Shown: positions 17,186-27,020 of the stretch, piece by piece
How positions within the stretch are numbered: the stretch's first letter is position 1
How the letters are laid out: each line of letters opens with the position of its first letter
Sequence record: OR861627.1
DNA from: Escherichia phage phiD2-2
Direction: 5' to 3' (one strand)
Length of the DNA: 49,337 bases
Position numbers and translations under genes: made by a program
The notes under the pieces: model-generated
Seen by the model: only the letters and a program-made list of their open reading frames with translations
Databases searched by the model: none
Told to the model about the DNA's origin: nothing

Positions 17186-18754
17186 ATGATTCAATGGGAA
17201 GAACTCGACGCAACTCAGAAGTTGGCGATCAAAAAAATGAGCGAGGCCAATTTCGAAAAAATGATTCGGATCTGGTTTCAGCTTATGCAGGCTCAGCAGT
17301 TCCAGCCTAACTGGCATCACCTTTACCTATGTCACGAAGTGGAGGAAATTATTGCAGGCCGACGCGGTAACACTATCTTTAACGTCACGCCAGGCTCCGG
17401 TAAAACTGAGGTGTTCTCAATTCACCTTCCGGTGTACGCAATGCTCAAGTGTAAAAAGGTGAGAAACCTTAACGTGTCGTTTGCCGACAGCTTAGTTAAG
17501 CGTAACAGTAAGCGTGTCCGTGAGATTATCAGCAGCAACGAATTTCAAGAGCTATGGCCTTGCAAGTTCGGTACATCGAAAGACGAGGAGATGCAGGTTC
17601 TTAATGAAGACGGAAAGGTTTGGTTTGAGCTAATCTCCGCAGCGGCTGGTGGTCGTATTACTGGTTCGCGTGGTGGGTACATGATGCCAGGATTCTCAGG
17701 TATGGTAATGCTCGACGATATCGACAAGCCTGATGATATGTTCTCAAAGGTTAAGCGTGAGCGTACGCACATGCTATTGAAAAACACCATTCGATCCCGT
17801 CGTATGCATAACGAAACGCCAATTATCGCAATTCAGCAGCGACTACATGCTCAGGATTCAACCTGGTTCATGATGAATGGCGGGATGGGTATTGAGTTTG
17901 ACCAAATCTCAATCCCGGCGCTGGTGACGGAAGAATACGGAAAGACACTTCCTGATTGGTTGCAGCCTTACTTTGAGCGTGATGTTTTATCGTCTGAGTA
18001 TGTAGAATTGGATGGCGTTAAGCATTACTCTTTTTGGCCCAGCAAGGAAAGCGTTCACGACCTGTTAGCCTTGCGAGAAGCTGATCAGTACACCTTTGAC
18101 TCTCAGTATCAGCAGAAGCCGATCGCGCTTGGTGGCTCCGTGTTTAACTCGGAGTGGTGGACCTATTACGGCAGCAGCCTTGACGCTGACGAGCCAGATC
18201 CTGGTAAATATGATTACCGTTTTATCACAGCAGATACCGCTCAGAAGACGGGTGAGCTAAACGACTACACGGTCTTTTGTTTATGGGGTAAGAAAAACGA
18301 TAAGGTTTACTTTATCGACGGCATTCGCGGCAAGTGGGAAGCGACTGATATGGAGAAACAATTTACCGCCTTTGTGAATCAGGCATGGAGGCACAATAAA
18401 TCAATGGGCGTGCTTCGCAAAATCTACGTGGAAGATAAAGCGAGCGGAACGGGCTTGATTCAGAACTTAAGGAAAAAGACCCCGATCTCAATTACACCAT
18501 TGCAACGTAACAAAGATAAAGTTACCCGAGCGATGGATGCGCAGCCAGTTATTAAGGCCGGGCGTGTAGTTCTTCCAGAAGAGCACCCTATGCTTGCGGA
18601 AATCATCGCAGAGCATAGCGCTTTCACATATGATGACACACATCCGCATGATGACATTGTCGATAACTTCATGGATGCGGCGAACATTGAATTGCTGACT
18701 ATTGACGATCCTATTGAGCGAATGAAGCGACTTGCCGGGATGGTTAAGCGGTAA
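17186..18754 (+). CDS. terminase large subunit
   Basis: 522 aa; Walker A NVTPGSGKTEV near N-terminus, acidic nuclease-type C-terminal half; GGAG RBS. Confidence 0.85.
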   Translation: MIQWEELDATQKLAIKKMSEANFEKMIRIWFQLMQAQQFQPNWHHLYLCHEVEEIIAGRRGNTIFNVTPGSGKTEVFSIHLPVYAMLKCKKVRNLNVSFADSLVKRNSKRVREIISSNEFQELWPCKFGTSKDEEMQVLNEDGKVWFELISAAAGGRITGSRGGYMMPGFSGMVMLDDIDKPDDMFSKVKRERTHMLLKNTIRSRRMHNETPIIAIQQRLHAQDSTWFMMNGGMGIEFDQISIPALVTEEYGKTLPDWLQPYFERDVLSSEYVELDGVKHYSFWPSKESVHDLLALREADQYTFDSQYQQKPIALGGSVFNSEWWTYYGSSLDADEPDPGKYDYRFITADTAQKTGELNDYTVFCLWGKKNDKVYFIDGIRGKWEATDMEKQFTAFVNQAWRHNKSMGVLRKIYVEDKASGTGLIQNLRKKTPISITPLQRNKDKVTRAMDAQPVIKAGRVVLPEEHPMLAEIIAEHSAFTYDDTHPHDDIVDNFMDAANIELLTIDDPIERMKRLAGMVKR

Positions 18755-18772
18755 TAAATGAGATATAATCAA

Positions 18773-18797
18773 GGCTGTCAATTGACGGCCTTTTTTA
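18773..18797 (+). terminator. rho-independent terminator between TerL and portal
   Basis: Stem GGCTGTCAA/TTGACGGCC then T6. Confidence 0.55.
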
Positions 18798-18808
18798 TTG
18801 GAGGAAAC

Positions 18809-20092
18809 ATGAAAATTGTTAAACATGATGGATATAACGATATCTTTAACGGCGGCGCGGACGGTTCACCAAAGCCATTTTTTATGTCAGACGCATCATA
18901 TCACGTAGGATCTTTCTATAACGATAACGCAACAGCGAAGCGAATTGTAGATGTGATCCCGGAAGAAATGGTGACGGCTGGATTTAAAATTTCAGGCGTT
19001 AAGGATGAAAAAGAGTTCAAATCTCTGTGGGATAGTTACAAAATTGATCCTAGCTTGGTTGATGCTCTTTGCTGGGCGCGCTTATACGGTGGGGCGGCTA
19101 TTGTAGCAATCATTAATGACAACAGAATGCTAACCAGTCCAGTTAAGCCTGGGGCTAAACTTGAAGGTGTGCGTGTTTACGATAGGTTCGCAATTACAAT
19201 CGAAAAAAGAGTAACCAATGCGCGATCGCCTCGCTATGGTGAGCCTGAGATCTATAAGGTGTCACCTGGTGACAATATTCAACCTTACTTAATCCACCAC
19301 ACAAGAATTTTCATTGCTGATGGTGAGAGAGTTACCCCTCAGATGAGGAAGCAGAATCAGGGGTGGGGTGCTTCAGTTTTGAATAAGTCACTGATTGATG
19401 CAATCTGCGACTACGACTATTGCGAATCACTTGCGACTCAGATCCTTCGGCGTAAGCAACAGGCGGTATGGAAGGTCAAAGGTCTTGCCGAAATGTGCGA
19501 TGATGACGATGCTCAGTATGCGGCGCGTCTGCGACTTGCTCAGGTTGATGATAACTCCGGCGTAGGCCGCGCGATCGGTATCGATGCTGAGACGGAAGAA
19601 TACGATGTTCTAAACTCTGATATCAGCGGAGTACCTGAGTTCTTATCAAGCAAGATGGATCGTATTGTTTCCCTTTCCGGGATTCATGAGATTATCATCA
19701 AAAATAAGAACGTAGGCGGCGTATCAGCGAGCCAAAACACGGCGCTTGAGACTTTCTATAAGTTGGTAGATCGTAAGCGTGAGGAAGATTACAGGCCGCT
19801 TCTTGAGTTCTTGCTGCCGTTCATTGTTGACGAGCAAGAGTGGTCGATCGAGTTCGAGCCTTTATCTGTTCCGAGCAAGAAAGAGGAATCAGAGATCACG
19901 AAGAATAACGTTGAGTCGGTTACGAAAGCTATCACTGAGCAAATCATCGATCTGGAAGAGGCTCGCGATACGTTGCGCTCTATCGCCCCTGAGTTTAAGC
20001 TAAAGGACGGTAATAACATCAACATTCGCGAACCGGAAGAGCCAACCGAACCGGAGCCGGGATTAGGGGAGAAGTTAGAAGATGAAAATTAA
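18809..20092 (+). CDS. portal protein
   Basis: About 427 aa gene after TerL, acidic C-terminus; track ORF trimmed to ATG (MKIVKHDG) with GGAGGAAA RBS. Confidence 0.7.
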   Translation: MKIVKHDGYNDIFNGGADGSPKPFFMSDASYHVGSFYNDNATAKRIVDVIPEEMVTAGFKISGVKDEKEFKSLWDSYKIDPSLVDALCWARLYGGAAIVAIINDNRMLTSPVKPGAKLEGVRVYDRFAITIEKRVTNARSPRYGEPEIYKVSPGDNIQPYLIHHTRIFIADGERVTPQMRKQNQGWGASVLNKSLIDAICDYDYCESLATQILRRKQQAVWKVKGLAEMCDDDDAQYAARLRLAQVDDNSGVGRAIGIDAETEEYDVLNSDISGVPEFLSSKMDRIVSLSGIHEIIIKNKNVGGVSASQNTALETFYKLVDRKREEDYRPLLEFLLPFIVDEQEWSIEFEPLSVPSKKEESEITKNNVESVTKAITEQIIDLEEARDTLRSIAPEFKLKDGNNINIREPEEPTEPEPGLGEKLEDEN

Positions 20093-20843
20093 TGGCGTTG
20101 CTACTCAGTGGCGCTATCCTGAAATGAGCGAGCGCGCAATGTCGCGCTCCCTACAGGATGTAGCAGCCAAACTAACTGAAAAAATGCGTGACGAATTAAA
20201 GCCTATGAAATTTGATGCTACCGACGAAGAGATAGATCAGGCAGAAAGGTCATTGCTTGATTACGTTGAATCGCTCATCTCGCCGATTATAGGTTCTCTA
20301 TCATCCGTTGCGCTCACGATCTATAAATTCAACTCTAAGCAGTGGCTGCGCATCGCTCGCAATGCTGGAGGTAAGAAGAATCAAGCCGTGATGCTACTTG
20401 CCCTGATTGGTCCTACCGCTGACGAAAGCTGGTACTCAGGACAATATAATCTGTGGCGATCGCAGGTTACTACTTCTATCAGGAAATTTGCCGCCAACAT
20501 GGTTACTGATTTCACTGATAAACTTCGTGCGGCATCCGGTCAGGGTAAAAGCAAGGATTTTGTTGTTGAACTTGCTAAGGAACGATTTGGTATTTACCGG
20601 AACTGGGCCAAAAATAGAGCGTCGGGAATTGTCGGAACATGGAACAGTAGACTGATGCGGCAGCGTGTAAAAGACGCTGGTGTATCTTACTATTTCTGGC
20701 GCGGGGTGATGGATTTACGCGAACGTGAAAAACATGTAAGATGGGAAGGTAAGCGCATAGCGGTAGATTCCGATCACGTATTCCCGGGTGAAGAATACAA
20801 CTGCCGTTGTTGGGCTGTTCCAGACTTTTCCACAGGAGATTAA
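20082..20843 (+). CDS. head morphogenesis protein (Mu F-like minor head protein)
   Basis: 253 aa, downstream of portal; C-terminal FPGEEYNCRCWAVP motif typical of the F-like family. Confidence 0.65.
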   Translation: MKINGVATQWRYPEMSERAMSRSLQDVAAKLTEKMRDELKPMKFDATDEEIDQAERSLLDYVESLISPIIGSLSSVALTIYKFNSKQWLRIARNAGGKKNQAVMLLALIGPTADESWYSGQYNLWRSQVTTSIRKFAANMVTDFTDKLRAASGQGKSKDFVVELAKERFGIYRNWAKNRASGIVGTWNSRLMRQRVKDAGVSYYFWRGVMDLREREKHVRWEGKRIAVDSDHVFPGEEYNCRCWAVPDFSTGD

Positions 20844-20845
20844 AA

Positions 20846-21958
20846 ATGAAGGCAAAGCAAAGATTCGATTCGGTAAAAATCAAGGCACACTTTGATGATA
20901 ATGGTTTTTTGGTTGATCGCCCCATCGTGGCGAGAATTGGTGCTCAGGTTTACAAGACTCCACACGGCGATCGCGTTGAGTTCCGTCCGGCGTCCGAAGT
21001 TTTCAAGCAAGATTCATTGCAAAGTTTTGCAGGCAAGCCGATTACAGTAGGTCACGTAACGGTAACTCCCCAAAATGCTAAGGATGTTGTTGTCGGATCG
21101 TGTGCTGGCGCTGGTATTGCTTCAGGGGTTGGCGTTGAAGTTCCTTTGAGTATTTACAGCGACTACGCGATCAGCAAAGCTAAAGCGAAGGAGGCCGGGG
21201 AATTATCTGTAGGGTATACGTCGGTAGATATTGATAAGCCCGGCTGGGGTTCAAATGAGACTGGAGAATATATCTTCGAAGAGGATATGAAACAGGACGA
21301 AGCGCCGCCTGAAGGTTGGGTGAAATTCGACGCGGTACAGACTAATATCAAGGTCAACCATATTGCCCTAGTTTTTAAAGGTCGTGCGGGAATTGCTAAA
21401 TTAAATCTTGATGCCGAACAGGAGTTCCCGTATGATAATAACGTTCAATTAACTAACGAGGACAAGCAAATGAAAAAAATTAAGATCGACTCAGTTGATG
21501 TGGAAGTAACCGAAGACGTTGCGAACCATATCGAAAAATTAACCGCTCAGATTGCCACCATTCAGGGGAAAGCTGATGGCTTCGAAGCTGAGCGCGATGC
21601 GCTGAAGGTTAAGGTTGACTCTCTGCCGGAACTTGTGAAGGCCGAGGTAGAGAAGCAAAAAGCCGATGCCGCCGCACGCGCAGAAGTTACCGCAGTAGCA
21701 GAAACCGCAGGCGTCAAACATGATGGTCTTGATATCAAAGACGTCAAGATTGCCGTAGTTAAAGCCATGCTTGATAAAGATGTTAGTGAAAAATCTGATG
21801 CATATATCGACGCTATGTTTGATGTTGCTAAAGATTCTGATATCATGGCTATTCAGCGTAAAGCAGTAAAAGGCGACTCTATCGAAGGCGGTAAGCCGGA
21901 AGAGAAAAACGACGCCGCGCCTGTTACGCCAAATTCACGTTTAAGCAAAGTAATGTAA
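20846..21958 (+). CDS. putative scaffolding (or protease-scaffold) protein
   Basis: Track ORF trimmed to MKAKQRF with GGAG RBS; C-terminal half is alanine/lysine/glutamate-rich predicted coiled coil. Confidence 0.4.
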   Translation: MKAKQRFDSVKIKAHFDDNGFLVDRPIVARIGAQVYKTPHGDRVEFRPASEVFKQDSLQSFAGKPITVGHVTVTPQNAKDVVVGSCAGAGIASGVGVEVPLSIYSDYAISKAKAKEAGELSVGYTSVDIDKPGWGSNETGEYIFEEDMKQDEAPPEGWVKFDAVQTNIKVNHIALVFKGRAGIAKLNLDAEQEFPYDNNVQLTNEDKQMKKIKIDSVDVEVTEDVANHIEKLTAQIATIQGKADGFEAERDALKVKVDSLPELVKAEVEKQKADAAARAEVTAVAETAGVKHDGLDIKDVKIAVVKAMLDKDVSEKSDAYIDAMFDVAKDSDIMAIQRKAVKGDSIEGGKPEEKNDAAPVTPNSRLSKVM

Positions 21959-21969
21959 GGGGAAATATC

Positions 21970-22446
21970 ATGGCACAAATTAATGCATCTTATCAGCGAG
22001 ATATGGCGATTGCGCTTCCGGGTATGGTTGCGGATACTTCAAAGTACAATATTGACGGCGCTTGTGTCGTTAATGAAGGTGATGTTCTTGTTGGCGCTGC
22101 CGTACAAGTTGTTCAAGCTCAGGCGGTTGATGGTCATAAGTTGGTTAAGGCTCTTACTACCGGAACCACTCCTTACGGCGTGGCAATCCGATCTCACTGG
22201 CAGACTGTTAACGCTCAAAATCAGATGATTTACGAAGATGGCGGCGCTATCAACGTGATGACTTCAGGCCGAGTATGGATGCTTTCCAAATCCACCGAAG
22301 CACCAACTTTCGGCTCTGCCGTTAAACTTGATGTTGATGGTCAGGAAAAATCTGATGGCACGATCGAAACAACCTGGACCTACGCTGGCGGTTGGACTAA
22401 ATACAAAGATATTCAGCTTGTTGAGGTTCAGTTGCATCAACTGTAA
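21970..22446 (+). CDS. capsid-associated protein, paralog 1 (possible decoration protein)
   Basis: Shares N-terminal block (TSKYNIDGACV...AVQVV...TPYGVAIRS...GRVWML) with the next gene; terminator follows. Confidence 0.4.
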   Translation: MAQINASYQRDMAIALPGMVADTSKYNIDGACVVNEGDVLVGAAVQVVQAQAVDGHKLVKALTTGTTPYGVAIRSHWQTVNAQNQMIYEDGGAINVMTSGRVWMLSKSTEAPTFGSAVKLDVDGQEKSDGTIETTWTYAGGWTKYKDIQLVEVQLHQL

Positions 22447-22462
22447 TTAGCGTTTAATATGG

Positions 22463-22495
22463 GGACTATCTTTTTTTTGGATAGTCCTTTTTTTA
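22463..22495 (+). terminator. rho-independent terminator
   Basis: Stem GGACTATC/GGATAGTCC then T7. Confidence 0.65.
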
Positions 22496-22508
22496 TGGAG
22501 AAATCATT

Positions 22509-23276
22509 ATGGCTTACGAAAATTTGTTCTTGCGCCCCGCGTGTCCGGGAAATATTTCTGATACTTCAACCTACAATATTGATGGAGCTTGTGTGGCTCA
22601 AGGTGACATTGGGTTCGGCTCAGCGGTTCAGGTTGTAGGCATCGTTGACGGTGTAAAAGTTGTGGCGGCGCTTCCTGATGGTGGAACTCCTTACGGTATC
22701 GCTTTCCGTTCCCAATATGAACACCTGAGCGGTAAAATCCTTGACGGTGAAGTGTGCAACGTCGTTTCTCACGGTCGCGTATGGACTCTTACTTCTCTTG
22801 GTGAGGCTCCCAGCTTGTTCTCAAAGTTACAGTTTGGGTCTGGTGGAGTTGTTACTGGTGGATCTGGTTCCGCAGGTTGGACATTTGCGGGTGGCTTTGT
22901 TAAGCATGAAGATGGCTACATCATTGAGGTTCAGGTGAAACAAAATGCTTTCATCGCTCCACCGCCACCGCCCCCTGTCGTTCTTGTTGAATCTGCTACA
23001 ATCGCCACTGACAAGGAAAGCCCTCAACCAAACAATGTTACGATCCAGTGTGTAGCTAATGCTCTTCCGGATAATGCAACCGATAAGACTGGTAAATGGT
23101 CAATCGACGCTACCAATATCGCCACTGTCGATCCGGACTCAGGTCTTGTAACTCCTGTTGGTGGAGAGGTAGTCGGTGATTTCAATATTACCTGGACGGC
23201 TAACGATGCCAGCAAGACGACGGCAACTATTGCTTATCGCGTAGAAGCAGTGCCAACGCCAGAGGTTGATGCATAA
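22509..23276 (+). CDS. capsid-associated protein, paralog 2, with poly-Pro linker and C-terminal Ig-like domain
   Basis: N-terminal block paralogous to 21970-22446; APPPPPPVV linker; C-terminal beta-rich segment resembling a bacterial Ig-like (Big_2) fold. Confidence 0.45.
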   Translation: MAYENLFLRPACPGNISDTSTYNIDGACVAQGDIGFGSAVQVVGIVDGVKVVAALPDGGTPYGIAFRSQYEHLSGKILDGEVCNVVSHGRVWTLTSLGEAPSLFSKLQFGSGGVVTGGSGSAGWTFAGGFVKHEDGYIIEVQVKQNAFIAPPPPPPVVLVESATIATDKESPQPNNVTIQCVANALPDNATDKTGKWSIDATNIATVDPDSGLVTPVGGEVVGDFNITWTANDASKTTATIAYRVEAVPTPEVDA

Positions 23277-23296
23277 CATAAAAACACTTTGACGCT

Positions 23297-23313
23297 TTAA
23301 CAAAAAGTGCTAT
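23297..23313. repeat. boundary palindrome copy adjacent to a terminator
   Basis: TTTAACAAAAAGTGCTAT. Confidence 0.5.
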
Positions 23314-23318
23314 TATTG

Positions 23319-23348
23319 AAGCCGTGAACATAATCACGGCTTTTTTAT
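23319..23348 (+). terminator. rho-independent terminator ahead of the major capsid gene
   Basis: Stem AGCCGTGA/TCACGGCT then T6; a palindrome copy lies just upstream. Confidence 0.65.
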
Positions 23349-23367
23349 TAACTACGGAGAAGTAATA

Positions 23368-24327
23368 ATGACTACTAAAAAATTTGATGAAGCAGATAAA
23401 AGCAATGTTGAAATGTATCTGATCCAGGCTGGCGTAAAACAGGATGCAGCCGCAACGATGGGTATCTGGACCGCTCAGGAACTACACCGCATCAAGAGTC
23501 AGTCCTATGAAGAAGACTACCCGGTCGGCTCCGCTCTACGAGTATTCCCGGTTACAACCGAACTCTCTCCGACCGACAAGACGTTTGAGTACATGACCTT
23601 TGATAAGGTTGGTACTGCTCAGATTATCGCTGACTATACCGATGACCTGCCTCTGGTTGATGCACTTGGTACTTCTGAATTTGGTAAGGTGTTCCGTTTG
23701 GGTAACGCGTATCTGATCTCAATCGACGAAATCAAAGCAGGTCAGGCAACTGGTCGCCCACTGTCAACCCGTAAGGCGAGCGCGTGCCAGTTGGCGCATG
23801 ATCAGCTTGTTAACCGCCTGGTGTTCAAAGGTTCCGCACCGCACAAGATTGTGTCCGTGTTTAACCATCCGAACATCACTAAAATTACCTCCGGTAAGTG
23901 GATTGATGCATCTACTATGAAGCCGGAAACTGCGGAAGCTGAGCTAACTCAAGCGATCGAAACCATCGAGACGATTACTCGGGGTCAGCACCGCGCAACC
24001 AACATCCTGATCCCGCCTTCCATGCGTAAGGTTTTGGCGATTCGTATGCCTGAGACAACCATGTCTTATCTGGACTATTTTAAGTCTCAGAACTCCGGTA
24101 TCGAAATCGACTCTATCGCAGAGCTTGAGGATATTGACGGCGCAGGCACCAAAGGCGTACTGGTGTACGAAAAGAATCCGATGAACATGTCCATCGAGAT
24201 CCCGGAAGCATTTAATATGCTGCCAGCACAACCGAAAGACTTGCACTTTAAAGTGCCTTGCACTTCTAAGTGTACTGGTCTTACAATTTATCGCCCGATG
24301 ACTATTGTCTTAATCACTGGCGTGTAA
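23368..24327 (+). CDS. major capsid protein (putative)
   Basis: 319 aa gene with strong RBS, flanked by terminators, in the expected position after scaffold; no motif-level proof. Confidence 0.6.
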   Translation: MTTKKFDEADKSNVEMYLIQAGVKQDAAATMGIWTAQELHRIKSQSYEEDYPVGSALRVFPVTTELSPTDKTFEYMTFDKVGTAQIIADYTDDLPLVDALGTSEFGKVFRLGNAYLISIDEIKAGQATGRPLSTRKASACQLAHDQLVNRLVFKGSAPHKIVSVFNHPNITKITSGKWIDASTMKPETAEAELTQAIETIETITRGQHRATNILIPPSMRKVLAIRMPETTMSYLDYFKSQNSGIEIDSIAELEDIDGAGTKGVLVYEKNPMNMSIEIPEAFNMLPAQPKDLHFKVPCTSKCTGLTIYRPMTIVLITGV

Positions 24328-24334
24328 TATTATA

Positions 24335-24362
24335 GGGGCTAACTTAGTTAGTCCCTTTTTTA
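24335..24362 (+). terminator. rho-independent terminator after the major capsid gene
   Basis: Stem GGGCTAAC/GTTAGTCC then T6. Confidence 0.65.
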
Positions 24363-24376
24363 TTGGAGAAATCAAA

Positions 24377-24664
24377 ATGGCTAAAGAAAAAACTGTTGTT
24401 ATCGTAAACGTTGGTGTAGCTCTTCAGATGTTCCGTCTTGAAGATGGTTCCTTTGCTAAAGTTCTTCCAGATGAAGAGGTCACGCTTCCGGCGTCCGTTC
24501 TTGATTTGCCTGGCCTGCGTTGCTTAATTGCTCGCGAAGAAATCGAAGTTAAAGACGACAGTGCAACCAACCGCAAAATCCGCGCTGAAATGGCAAAGAT
24601 CACTAAGCCAGATCCGTGGGATAGCAAAAGCGTTAAAGAGCTTGAGGACGGCGGCGAATATTAA
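24377..24664 (+). CDS. hypothetical head-region protein (95 aa)
   Basis: Track ORF with GGAGAAA RBS between two terminators. Confidence 0.5.
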   Translation: MAKEKTVVIVNVGVALQMFRLEDGSFAKVLPDEEVTLPASVLDLPGLRCLIAREEIEVKDDSATNRKIRAEMAKITKPDPWDSKSVKELEDGGEY

Positions 24665-24670
24665 TCATCA

Positions 24671-24696
24671 AGGCGCTCATGTAGCGCCTTTTTTTA
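24671..24696 (+). terminator. rho-independent terminator
   Basis: Stem GGCGCT/AGCGCC then T7. Confidence 0.65.
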
Positions 24697-24707
24697 TGGG
24701 GGTAATT

Positions 24708-25118
24708 ATGAATCAAGAAACTTTAATTGCAGCTGTTGAGCAAATGCGAAAGCTGGTTCCGGCACTTCGTAAGGTTCCAGACGAAACGCTTTATGCGTGG
24801 GTAGAAATGGCTGAGCTTTTTGTATGCCAGAAGACCTTTAAAGACGCATACGTCAAAGCGATCGCTCTTTATGCATTACACCTTGCTTTCCTTGATGGGG
24901 CGCTAAAAGGTGAAGATGAGGATCTGGAATCGTACTCACGCCGCGTTACGTCATTCTCACTGAGCGGTGAATTTAGCCAGACTTTCGGAGAGGTTACGAA
25001 GAACCAGTCAGGGAACATGATGCTTTCTACGCCGTGGGGTAAGATGTTCGAACAGCTTAAAGCGAGACGCCGTGGTAGATTCGCATTAATGACAGGACTC
25101 CGTGGAGGATGCCACTAA
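24708..25118 (+). CDS. head-tail connector/adaptor protein (putative)
   Basis: Track ORF 24528..25118 trimmed to ATG (MNQETLIAAV) after terminator; call by size and position. Confidence 0.45.
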   Translation: MNQETLIAAVEQMRKLVPALRKVPDETLYAWVEMAELFVCQKTFKDAYVKAIALYALHLAFLDGALKGEDEDLESYSRRVTSFSLSGEFSQTFGEVTKNQSGNMMLSTPWGKMFEQLKARRRGRFALMTGLRGGCH

Positions 25119-25489
25119 TGAACTACTCACAGATTGAAAGAATGGCTCGCAAAGGCGTGGCTTTCTTCACCGATCCGTCAAGACCTATGAACCTGATAAA
25201 ACAAGGTGAATACGGATATGATGAAAACGGATTCGAGATCCCACCGATGGAACAGGTTATTCCAATATCCGGCGCGACGAGAAGACCGAACGCGCGTGAG
25301 ATTGACGGGGAAACTATCCGCGCCTCAGATATTTTGGGGATCTTCAATAATGATCATGAAATAAACGAAGGTGACTATATAGAGATTGATGGCATTCGTC
25401 ATGTTGTCGTTGATGCTCGCCCGGTTCAGGCGTCACTGGAACCAGTTGCCTATCGTCCAGTGTTGCGGAGGGTATCAGTCGGTGGCTAA
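25118..25489 (+). CDS. head-tail joining / head closure protein (putative)
   Basis: Track ORF; second ATG preferred because GGAGGA abuts the first; call by position. Confidence 0.4.
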   Translation: MNYSQIERMARKGVAFFTDPSRPMNLIKQGEYGYDENGFEIPPMEQVIPISGATRRPNAREIDGETIRASDILGIFNNDHEINEGDYIEIDGIRHVVVDARPVQASLEPVAYRPVLRRVSVGG

Positions 25490-25925
25490 TTATCAGATTC
25501 GTAGATTTCAAGGCGAGATTGATGCGTGGATTAAGGCAGCTGAAAGCACGTTAGAACATGCCATTGAGATATTCGTAAGGGATGTTCACGACGCTCTTGT
25601 TAGCCGCTCCCCTGTTGATACAGGTCGATTCAAGGGTAACTGGCAGATAACTTTTAACGAAATCCCTAACCACGCATTAAACCGATACGATAAAACTGGC
25701 AGTGTCGTAAGAGGTGAGGAGCAGGCCAAAACTTATGGCATGTTCAGCCGTGGCGGCGCGATAACATCAGTTCACTTTTCAAACATGTTGATTTATGCAA
25801 ACGCTCTTGAGTACGGTCATTCACAGCAAGCACCGAGCGGAGTTGTCGGTCTTGTGGCATTAAGGCTGAGATCATATATGGCTGACGCAATCAAGCAGGC
25901 AAGGAGACAGCAAAATGCACTATGA
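25482..25925 (+). CDS. neck/tail completion protein (putative); start uncertain
   Basis: Track frame 25386..25925 overlaps previous gene; GTG at about 25482 with GGAGGG upstream is the best start. Confidence 0.35.
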   Translation: MANYQIRRFQGEIDAWIKAAESTLEHAIEIFVRDVHDALVSRSPVDTGRFKGNWQITFNEIPNHALNRYDKTGSVVRGEEQAKTYGMFSRGGAITSVHFSNMLIYANALEYGHSQQAPSGVVGLVALRLRSYMADAIKQARRQQNAL

Positions 25926-26313
25926 GTTATCAGCGGCGGCGCGAGCCGCTTTTCTATCAAAGTACAGAGACTTTCCTCACTACATGGAAAACAGAAATTT
26001 CACACCTCCTAAGGATGGCGGCATGTGGCTGAGGTTCAACTACATTGAGGGGGATACGCTTTATCTATCCATTGACAGAAAGTGTAAATCTTACATCGCA
26101 ATCGTTCAGATCGGCGTAGTGTTCCCTCCAGGCTCCGGCGTTGACGAAGCAAGATTGAAGGCAAAAGAGATTGCTGATTTTTTCAAAGATGGTAAAATGC
26201 TTAACGTTGGTTATATTTTCGAGGGTGCAATCGTGCATCAAATTGTTAAACATGAAAGCGGGTGGATGATTCCGGTTCGCTTTACAGTACGAGTAGACAC
26301 AAAGGAGACTTAA
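25915..26313 (+). CDS. tail terminator-like protein (putative)
   Basis: 132 aa, AAGGAG RBS, immediately upstream of the major tail gene. Confidence 0.4.
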   Translation: MHYELSAAARAAFLSKYRDFPHYMENRNFTPPKDGGMWLRFNYIEGDTLYLSIDRKCKSYIAIVQIGVVFPPGSGVDEARLKAKEIADFFKDGKMLNVGYIFEGAIVHQIVKHESGWMIPVRFTVRVDTKET

Positions 26314-26314
26314 T

Positions 26315-26983
26315 ATGCACTTACCAAATGGCGCGCAAATTTTCGTGGAAACCTCTCGCGGAGAAGAGATAGAGGCGACCGCTGTCACTAACGAAAAAAA
26401 TCCTGTTGCTACAGTTGCATCTAAGGGCGACTTAGCAAAAGGCGATTACGTTATTGTAACTCAGTCAACCTGGGCCAAGATGGTCAGTCGAGTGCTAATT
26501 GTTACTGACGCTCAGGAAACAAGCATCACTCTTGCTGGGATTGACACCTCTGATACTCTTGTTTTCCCGGCTGGCGGTACGATGAGCTTTGCAAAAATTA
26601 CTGGCTGGACTGAGATTCCTTGCGTACAGGAGATTGGTCAGGACGGCGGCGAGCAGCAGTATTATACTTATCAGTGCTTGTCAGACGATAAAGAACAGCA
26701 GATCCCAACGTTTAAATCTGCGATCTCGCTAACGTACACTTTCGCGCACGAATTTGATAACCCGATCTACCAGATTCTGCGCAAGCTGGATTCGTCTGGT
26801 CAGGTAACAGCGGTTCGAATGTACGTTCCGAAAGCGAGCGAAATGCGTATGTGGGCTGGCATCTTGTCGTTTAACGATATCCCATCCACGCAGGTTAACG
26901 AAATGGAAACGGTGGAACTCGCCGTATCCCTGAAAGGTGACTTTACTTTCATTTCATCCACTCTGGCATCGCCTGGTGCTTAA
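26315..26983 (+). CDS. major tail protein (putative)
   Basis: 222 aa gene directly upstream of the G/GT chaperone pair, followed by a terminator. Confidence 0.55.
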   Translation: MHLPNGAQIFVETSRGEEIEATAVTNEKNPVATVASKGDLAKGDYVIVTQSTWAKMVSRVLIVTDAQETSITLAGIDTSDTLVFPAGGTMSFAKITGWTEIPCVQEIGQDGGEQQYYTYQCLSDDKEQQIPTFKSAISLTYTFAHEFDNPIYQILRKLDSSGQVTAVRMYVPKASEMRMWAGILSFNDIPSTQVNEMETVELAVSLKGDFTFISSTLASPGA

Positions 26984-26994
26984 ATCCTATCCAT

Positions 26995-27020
26995 AGGGGG
27001 CTTGCGCCCCCTTGTTCATT
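26995..27020 (+). terminator. rho-independent terminator after the major tail gene
   Basis: Stem GGGGGC/GCCCCC then T-rich run. Confidence 0.6.

Follow-up and report, generated by a model that had tools for sequence, protein, structure and literature searches.

A tandem pair of capsid cement paralogues, the second carrying an Ig-like domain, in Escherichia phage phiD2-2

The locus and its two paralogous genes

In this study, we examined two adjacent genes, here called A and B, in DNA of Escherichia phage phiD2-2 (OR861627.1), the window being the whole stretch of 49,337 nucleotides that was analysed. As an original prediction made from the letters alone had proposed, two genes lie next to each other here; they are open reading frames of 158 and 255 amino acids on the same strand, separated by a gap of 62 nt (Table 1). 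Their description as capsid-associated is correct, as the pair sits between the head maturation protease gene, which ends at 21958, and the gene of the major capsid protein. The head module runs in the order portal (PF06381), MuF-like protein, DUF2213 head maturation protease, A, B and major capsid protein (PF09950), and this order is the same in nine related phage records. Region 21500-24400 has 100% identity with Escherichia phage FCWL1 (PP558327.1; Tunavirus, Drexlerviridae) and 97% with T1. Gene coordinates are offset by 8302 from those of PP558327.1, and we infer that the window represents a FCWL1-type whole genome in another rotation. In the FCWL1 annotation, A is gp28, "decoration protein", and B is gp29, "IgG-domain-containing decoration protein"; the curated T1 record (AY216660.1) uses the same names for gp49 (A) and gp48 (B).

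Table 1. Features of the A-B locus and its flanks, in window coordinates
Feature	Position	Strand	Evidence
Shine-Dalgarno-like AAGGGG before gene A, sharing bases with the protease stop codon	21957..21962	+	sequence; RBS at the equivalent position of the T1 record
Gene A, main cement/decoration protein, 158 aa (FCWL1 gp28 = T1 gp49)	21970..22446	+	ORF, PF22758, PDB identity
Intrinsic-terminator-like hairpin (11 pairs, 22461-22489), then T-run	22461..22496	+	terminator scan, T1 annotation
Shine-Dalgarno GGAG of gene B	22497..22500	+	sequence; RBS annotated at the equivalent T1 position
Gene B (22509-23276, 255 aa), cement domain, residues 1-146	22509..22946	+	BLASTP, PF22758 E=5e-17
Gene B, linker AFIAPPPPPPVV, residues 147-158; six Pro codons at 22959-22976	22947..22982	+	sequence
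Gene B, Big_2 Ig-like domain (residues 177-240 = 23037-23228), short tail and stop	22983..23276	+	Pfam
Sigma-70-like promoter TTGACG-16-TATTAT with TG upstream, between B and the capsid gene	23289..23316	+	motif scan, T1 annotation
Hairpin (23318-23343) and T-run, after the promoter and before the capsid-gene RBS	23318..23349	+	scan; terminator in the T1 record
Major capsid protein gp30, HK97 fold, surface bound by A and B	23368..24327	+	PF09950 E=4e-63; phrog_264

The proposed kinship of the two proteins was borne out by pairwise alignment: residues 15-157 of A and 11-145 of B share 62/143 identities (43%) in BLASTP, with E=3e-33, a value at which chance similarity was rejected. The shared block had been described as N-terminal, which holds for B, where it covers the first ~146 residues, and not for A, of which it makes up the whole. 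In the alignment, the cement domain of B lacks the first four residues of A. Downstream of this domain, the poly-proline linker and C-terminal Ig-like segment that had been read from the sequence were both recovered; APPPPPPVV lies within the longer linker AFIAPPPPPPVV, and the ~95-100 aa domain that follows contains a match to Pfam Big_2 (PF02368), whose score of 31.9 bits exceeds the gathering cut-off, 22.8.

Both proteins match Pfam PF22758 Phage_cement (cut-off 27), A with 106.1 bits (E=2e-30) and B with 62.9 bits, as do eight orthologues from other Drexlerviridae. They also score above the cut-off for PF23982, the model of XM1 gp53. Pfam defines PF22758 as "Structural cement protein (E217 gp24/Pam3 gp6)", and by these profile matches A and B are assigned to the Phage_cement (beta-tulip) family. 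When the cement-domain profile was run against PDB sequences, the only other solved relative found was the XM1 cement protein (8HDT, E=4e-6); lambda gpD, TW1 gp56, E217 gp24 and Sf11 gp40 were not reached by this search, and kinship to them rests on the Pfam definition and on published fold comparisons. Likewise, the fold assignments for A and B are based on published structures together with profile matches, the single-sequence AlphaFold2 model of B having a mean pLDDT of 34. For the C-terminal domain, Big_2 was matched individually by six of seven homologous domains, and a profile built from all seven retrieved the C-terminal part of the DT57C tail tube protein (8hqz, E=2e-9) and of T5 pb6 (5ngj, 7qg9; E=4e-5 to 7e-5), as well as a Big_2-bearing glucanase (7quz). 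The matched C-terminal regions of the T5 pb6 and DT57C tail tube proteins are solved Ig-like domains.

The pair on the capsid

That the two genes encode a decoration-protein pair, as first proposed, is established by identical chains in virion structures, to which mass spectrometry annotations can be added. PDB chain 9kmg_a matches A at 158/158 residues, and exact copies of A and B are among the chains of 9KMG and 9KMH, two cryo-EM entries in which they are named "Decoration protein" and "Decoration protein gp29". The condition set to refute the original prediction, absence of both proteins from virions, is thus contradicted by the structures. The T1 orthologues are found in 9KZJ, where the chains have identities of 100% with A and 95% with B, and in phage mar001J1 both orthologues carry the annotation "confirmed structural protein by MS". 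Because both proteins are present in virion structures, a role as non-virion assembly factor was rejected. The cement pair is thus already known, cryo-EM structures of both proteins having been published in 2025. The FCWL1 structure paper (Cai et al. 2025, Structure 33:663) is cited in PMC13033339, where FCWL1 is named as one of the phages whose cement proteins are trimeric.

The assembly has been described for T1, whose T=7 head contains the major capsid protein in 415 copies and, on the capsid surface, cement trimers at threefold and quasi-threefold sites, of which 80 are A homotrimers and 60 are heterotrimers of two A and one B (PMC11945409). Both gp49 and the N-terminal part of gp48, the latter modelled over residues 2-153, adopt a beta-tulip fold like that of TW1 gp56 and lambda gpD. 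With its extended N-terminus, gp49 comes as far as the inner surface of the capsid, a feature that the T1 authors call unlike earlier cases; gp48 is attached only on the outside and its N-terminus is not inserted into the shell (PMC11945409). Residues 154-255 of gp48 correspond to weak protruding density and were modelled by AlphaFold3, not experimentally resolved. This is consistent with the original prediction of an Ig-like domain possibly displayed on the capsid surface; as to adhesion, which that prediction had also raised, the T1 authors propose, by analogy with T5 and crAss001, that the protrusion "may assist T1 adsorption" (PMC11945409).

Applied to the FCWL1-identical pair, these published findings suggest an arrangement in which the beta-tulip domains of A and B would trimerise outside the T=7 HK97-fold head, each trimer clamping three capsomers where they meet, at the threefold and quasi-threefold points. 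With copy numbers taken from T1, A would be the bulk subunit, forming 80 homotrimers and filling two of the three places in 60 others (~360 copies), with its N-terminus extending to the inner capsid surface. B would take one subunit place in 60 trimers (~60 copies), on the outer surface only, and would hold a single Big_2 Ig-like domain off the shell on its proline-rich linker. These points of assembly, copy number and outward display derive from the published structures, and what we propose below on the transcription of B and on the optional nature of its Ig domain is our own reading. In the FCWL1 entries themselves, gp28 accounts for 43 chains in three entries, and the gp29 sequence occurs in one entry only, with 5 chains. 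It may be that gp29 was modelled only in a fivefold (vertex) reconstruction of FCWL1. Given its single entry and five chains, the copy number or location reported for FCWL1 gp29 may differ from the 60 heterotrimers of T1.

How the pair relates to known systems can be stated at several levels. FCWL1 gp28/gp29 are the same proteins in the same gene order and with the same annotation, without any difference at the protein level, and T1 gp49/gp48 are their orthologues, alike in gene order and annotation. E217 gp24 and Pam3 gp6 are the namesakes of the family model (PF22758) matched by A and B, and XM1 gp53 (PF23982, 8HDT) is linked through common cement models, its solved chain of 166 aa being too short for an Ig domain. 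E217, Pam3 and XM1 are myophages. Single decoration proteins that form homotrimers are found in lambda and, as gp40, in Sf11. Lambda gpD and TW1 gp56, which act in a like manner, share the fold class and occupy all threefold and quasi-threefold positions of T=7 shells as trimers (PMC11945409), with no sequence similarity to A or B detectable in PDB sequence and profile searches. T1 goes beyond such a simple homotrimeric lattice in two ways, both published, namely the paralogue-containing heterotrimer and the N-terminal arm that reaches the inside of the shell (PMC11945409). T5 pb10 and T4 Hoc resemble B in combining a capsid anchor with one or more flexible, outward Ig-like domains and a proposed role in adherence. 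The Ig domains of Hoc figure in the model of bacteriophage adherence to mucus, and both pb10 and Hoc are monomers that sit at hexon centres through unrelated anchor domains. In contrast, the anchor of B is a cement-protein paralogue within a quasi-threefold heterotrimer, so that both anchor and site differ. The likeness to T5 is an analogy drawn by the T1 authors (PMC11945409).

The original prediction had also allowed for a head fibre. In favour of such a fibre, comparable to phi29 gp8.5, in place of a cement lattice, the T1 protrusion is flexible and poorly resolved (PMC11945409). We consider it very improbable and rejected it, as B is extended by just a single monomeric Ig-like domain (~100 aa), carried by a proline linker of 12 residues, with only one B per trimer in T1 (PMC11945409). 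Moreover, A and B match cement families and gave no match to fibre families in Pfam and phrog profile searches, the published maps already speak against a fibre, and the reannotation paper on phage TLS favours a lambda gpD-like decoration protein over a capsid fibre for Gp34, which it takes to be the decoration protein of the TLS capsid.

Comparative anatomy and selection

To place the pair in its wider family, the layout of the cement genes was compared in ten Drexlerviridae-type phage records. An A-then-B pair was found in Tunavirus, Sertoctavirus, Warwickvirus, Kyungwonvirus and a Klebsiella phage; Webervirus and Veterinaerplatzvirus have one cement gene only. The length of B varies with its Ig content, from 166 aa without an Ig domain (Cronobacter phage ESP2949-1) through 255-268 aa with one to 337 aa with two (mar001J1). 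T1, Sfin-4 and mar001J1 have the same linker but for one residue, and BrunoManser and K50 have none. In a tree of cement domains from 7-8 phages of several genera, A copies and B copies fall into separate clades, which indicates that the pair stems from one old duplication. Across the compared phages, identities are 52-100% for A, which is conserved, and 32-94% for B, which diverges faster.

A broader survey used IMG/VR loci retrieved with the cement-domain profile, of which the best 80 of 164 were analysed, a redundant and biased sample. Tandem A-then-B pairs were present in 51/80 of these loci, divided into 25 in which B has no Ig domain, 24 in which it has one and 2 in which it has two; a further 28 loci had a single cement gene and one was truncated. 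Whenever an Ig domain occurred among these best 80 of 164 loci it was on B, never on A. With 25/51 copies of B lacking it, Ig display is not what defines the second paralogue. This Ig-less half of the B family, which we did not find described in the accessible literature, is one of two features newly seen here, the other being the terminator that is always kept between the paralogues.

Estimates of dN/dS against T1 and Sfin-4 gave 0.006 for the protease, 0.017-0.028 for the major capsid protein, 0-0.08 for A and 0.16-0.18 for B, the cement domain of B having values of 0.11-0.15 and its Ig part of 0.16-0.23. Judged by these low ratios, both A and B are functional and both halves of B are under purifying selection. 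At the nucleotide level, gene A (21970-22443) differs from T1 at 1/474 positions, amid flanking protease, B and capsid genes that differ from T1 by 3.6-5.4% (dS 0.15-0.18). A near-identical A between divergent flanks suggests a recent recombination patch covering this gene.

These comparisons bear on what B is for. It could be primarily an adhesin, whose Ig domain binds glycans of the host surface or of mucus and speeds adsorption, cementing being incidental. Such a role would account for the purifying selection on the Big_2 domain and for an Ig count that is one in some relatives and two in others, the kind of variation that a module facing the environment should show, and it agrees with the outward projection of the Ig part and the help in adsorption that the T1 authors propose by analogy with T5 and crAss001 (PMC11945409). 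Nevertheless, we hold it to be rather unlikely, since the 25 Ig-less copies among 51 (best 80 of 164 loci) still retain the pair, the gene order and the intergenic terminator, and since the cement domain of B is itself under purifying selection. As roughly every second B of the related phages does without the Ig domain, we prefer to see site-specific cementing as the basic job of B, to which the Ig domain would be an optional add-on. The Ig domain may bind weakly to cell-surface or environmental glycans and so help adsorption.

Terminator, promoter and the supply of B

The gap between A and B contains a hairpin with a centroid fold of -14.4 kcal/mol (z=-2.4), which AY216660.1, the T1 record, lists as a rho-independent terminator. 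Hairpin and U-run are kept in seven phages of different genera with differing stems, and compensatory changes occur at 3 pairs in the same comparison. Among the best 80 of 164 IMG/VR loci, a hairpin with T-run directly follows the stop codon of A in 51/51 tandem pairs, in the form of 26 distinct sequences with at least eight unrelated stems, and of random 95-nt windows drawn from these loci only 5.8% contain a comparable element. No promoter-like site was detected by the promoter scan between this hairpin and B. The best promoter-like site in 18000-27000 lies instead downstream of B, at 23289-23316, with 10/12 matching positions. Its motif is kept at the same position in 8/8 phages compared and is annotated as a promoter in the T1 record; the motif search returned four sites against 1.5 expected by chance, with an exact match only at 23289.

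Gene B thus occupies a slot between a terminator and the capsid promoter, from which we infer that it is probably made only from read-through transcripts, an expression mode that fits the roughly 6:1 ratio of A to B in T1 virions. On this arrangement of elements, the intergenic terminator probably keeps B scarcer than A, and the abundance of B would be set at least partly by transcription. We did not find this link between terminator and scarcity of B in the accessible literature.

The ratio of A to B might, however, be purely a matter of capsid geometry, the shorter N-terminus of B being accommodated at only a single subunit position within one quasi-threefold site class and the hairpin being generic operon punctuation. 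If only one site class accepts B, the same stoichiometry could result without transcriptional control. This explanation draws on the four residues missing from B relative to A and on the B N-terminus that is not inserted into the shell. It also draws on the terminator-like hairpins that follow several other genes of the late region and, among the best 80 of 164 loci, the single cement gene in 20/28 single-gene relatives; given the latter, the hairpin after A may just end a transcription unit older than B. In addition, with reference to earlier work on T1, the T1 late region is portrayed in the TLS paper as a succession of transcription modules with terminators on their flanks. Yet the hairpin has been lost in none of the 51 pairs despite complete turnover of its stem sequence, and B has no promoter-like site of its own in the promoter scan. 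As the sole explanation of the ratio, geometry has in our judgement a clearly less than even chance, and it is in any case not mutually exclusive with transcriptional control.

A further influence on the yield of B may lie in its linker. The B proteins of BrunoManser and K50 lack the run of six consecutive proline codons (PPPPPP), which is conserved in T1, Sfin-4 and mar001J1. Poly-proline runs stall ribosomes, which then need EF-P, and the PPPPPP run might further lower the yield of B. A more specific history can be put forward tentatively, at a probability clearly short of one half, in which B is an old site-specific structural subunit of many Drexlerviridae lineages, made scarce by the conserved terminator and possibly by stalling at the prolines, and the Ig domain came later, being repeatedly gained or lost. 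For the reading as a whole, in which A and B form a cement pair, the scarcity of B is partly transcriptional and the Ig domain is an optional add-on, we consider the probability to be high.

For a FCWL1-type phage this adds little, both proteins having been solved on the FCWL1 and T1 capsids. The gain is comparative, in that T1-like phages commonly have tandem cement paralogues, the second of which is Ig-less in half of the cases. Together, the always-present terminator and this Ig-less half offer a simple, testable model for how two capsid subunits can be provided in unequal amounts. The C-terminus of B would also be a naturally tolerant display site, at ~60 copies per T1-type head, of practical interest for phage display and capsid engineering.

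Several smaller observations concern the surroundings of the pair. Between B and the capsid gene (23289-23349), a hairpin follows the promoter within 2 nt, an arrangement kept in 8/8 phages. A transcript starting ~7 nt past the -10 element would begin inside the 5' arm of this hairpin, which for that reason could stop read-through from upstream yet spare transcripts of the adjacent promoter. Further upstream, the longest portal ORF, which is also that of the FCWL1 annotation, starts at 18758 and encodes 444 aa, and the curated T1 start corresponds to the ATG at 18809 (427 aa). A 9-pair hairpin at 18771-18792 is followed by TTTTTTATT, GGAGG and this ATG, and the 17 codons with which the FCWL1 portal annotation begins are probably non-coding, representing the terminator after the large terminase gene. 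In the whole 49.3 kb, ARAGORN found no tRNA or tmRNA genes, and no Rfam family reached its gathering threshold. Finally, between the capsid and adaptor genes lies a conserved ORF of 95 aa (24377-24664; phrog_2716, FCWL1 gp31), whose bracketing by terminator-like hairpins at 24334-24356 and 24670-24690 points to a mini transcription unit of its own.
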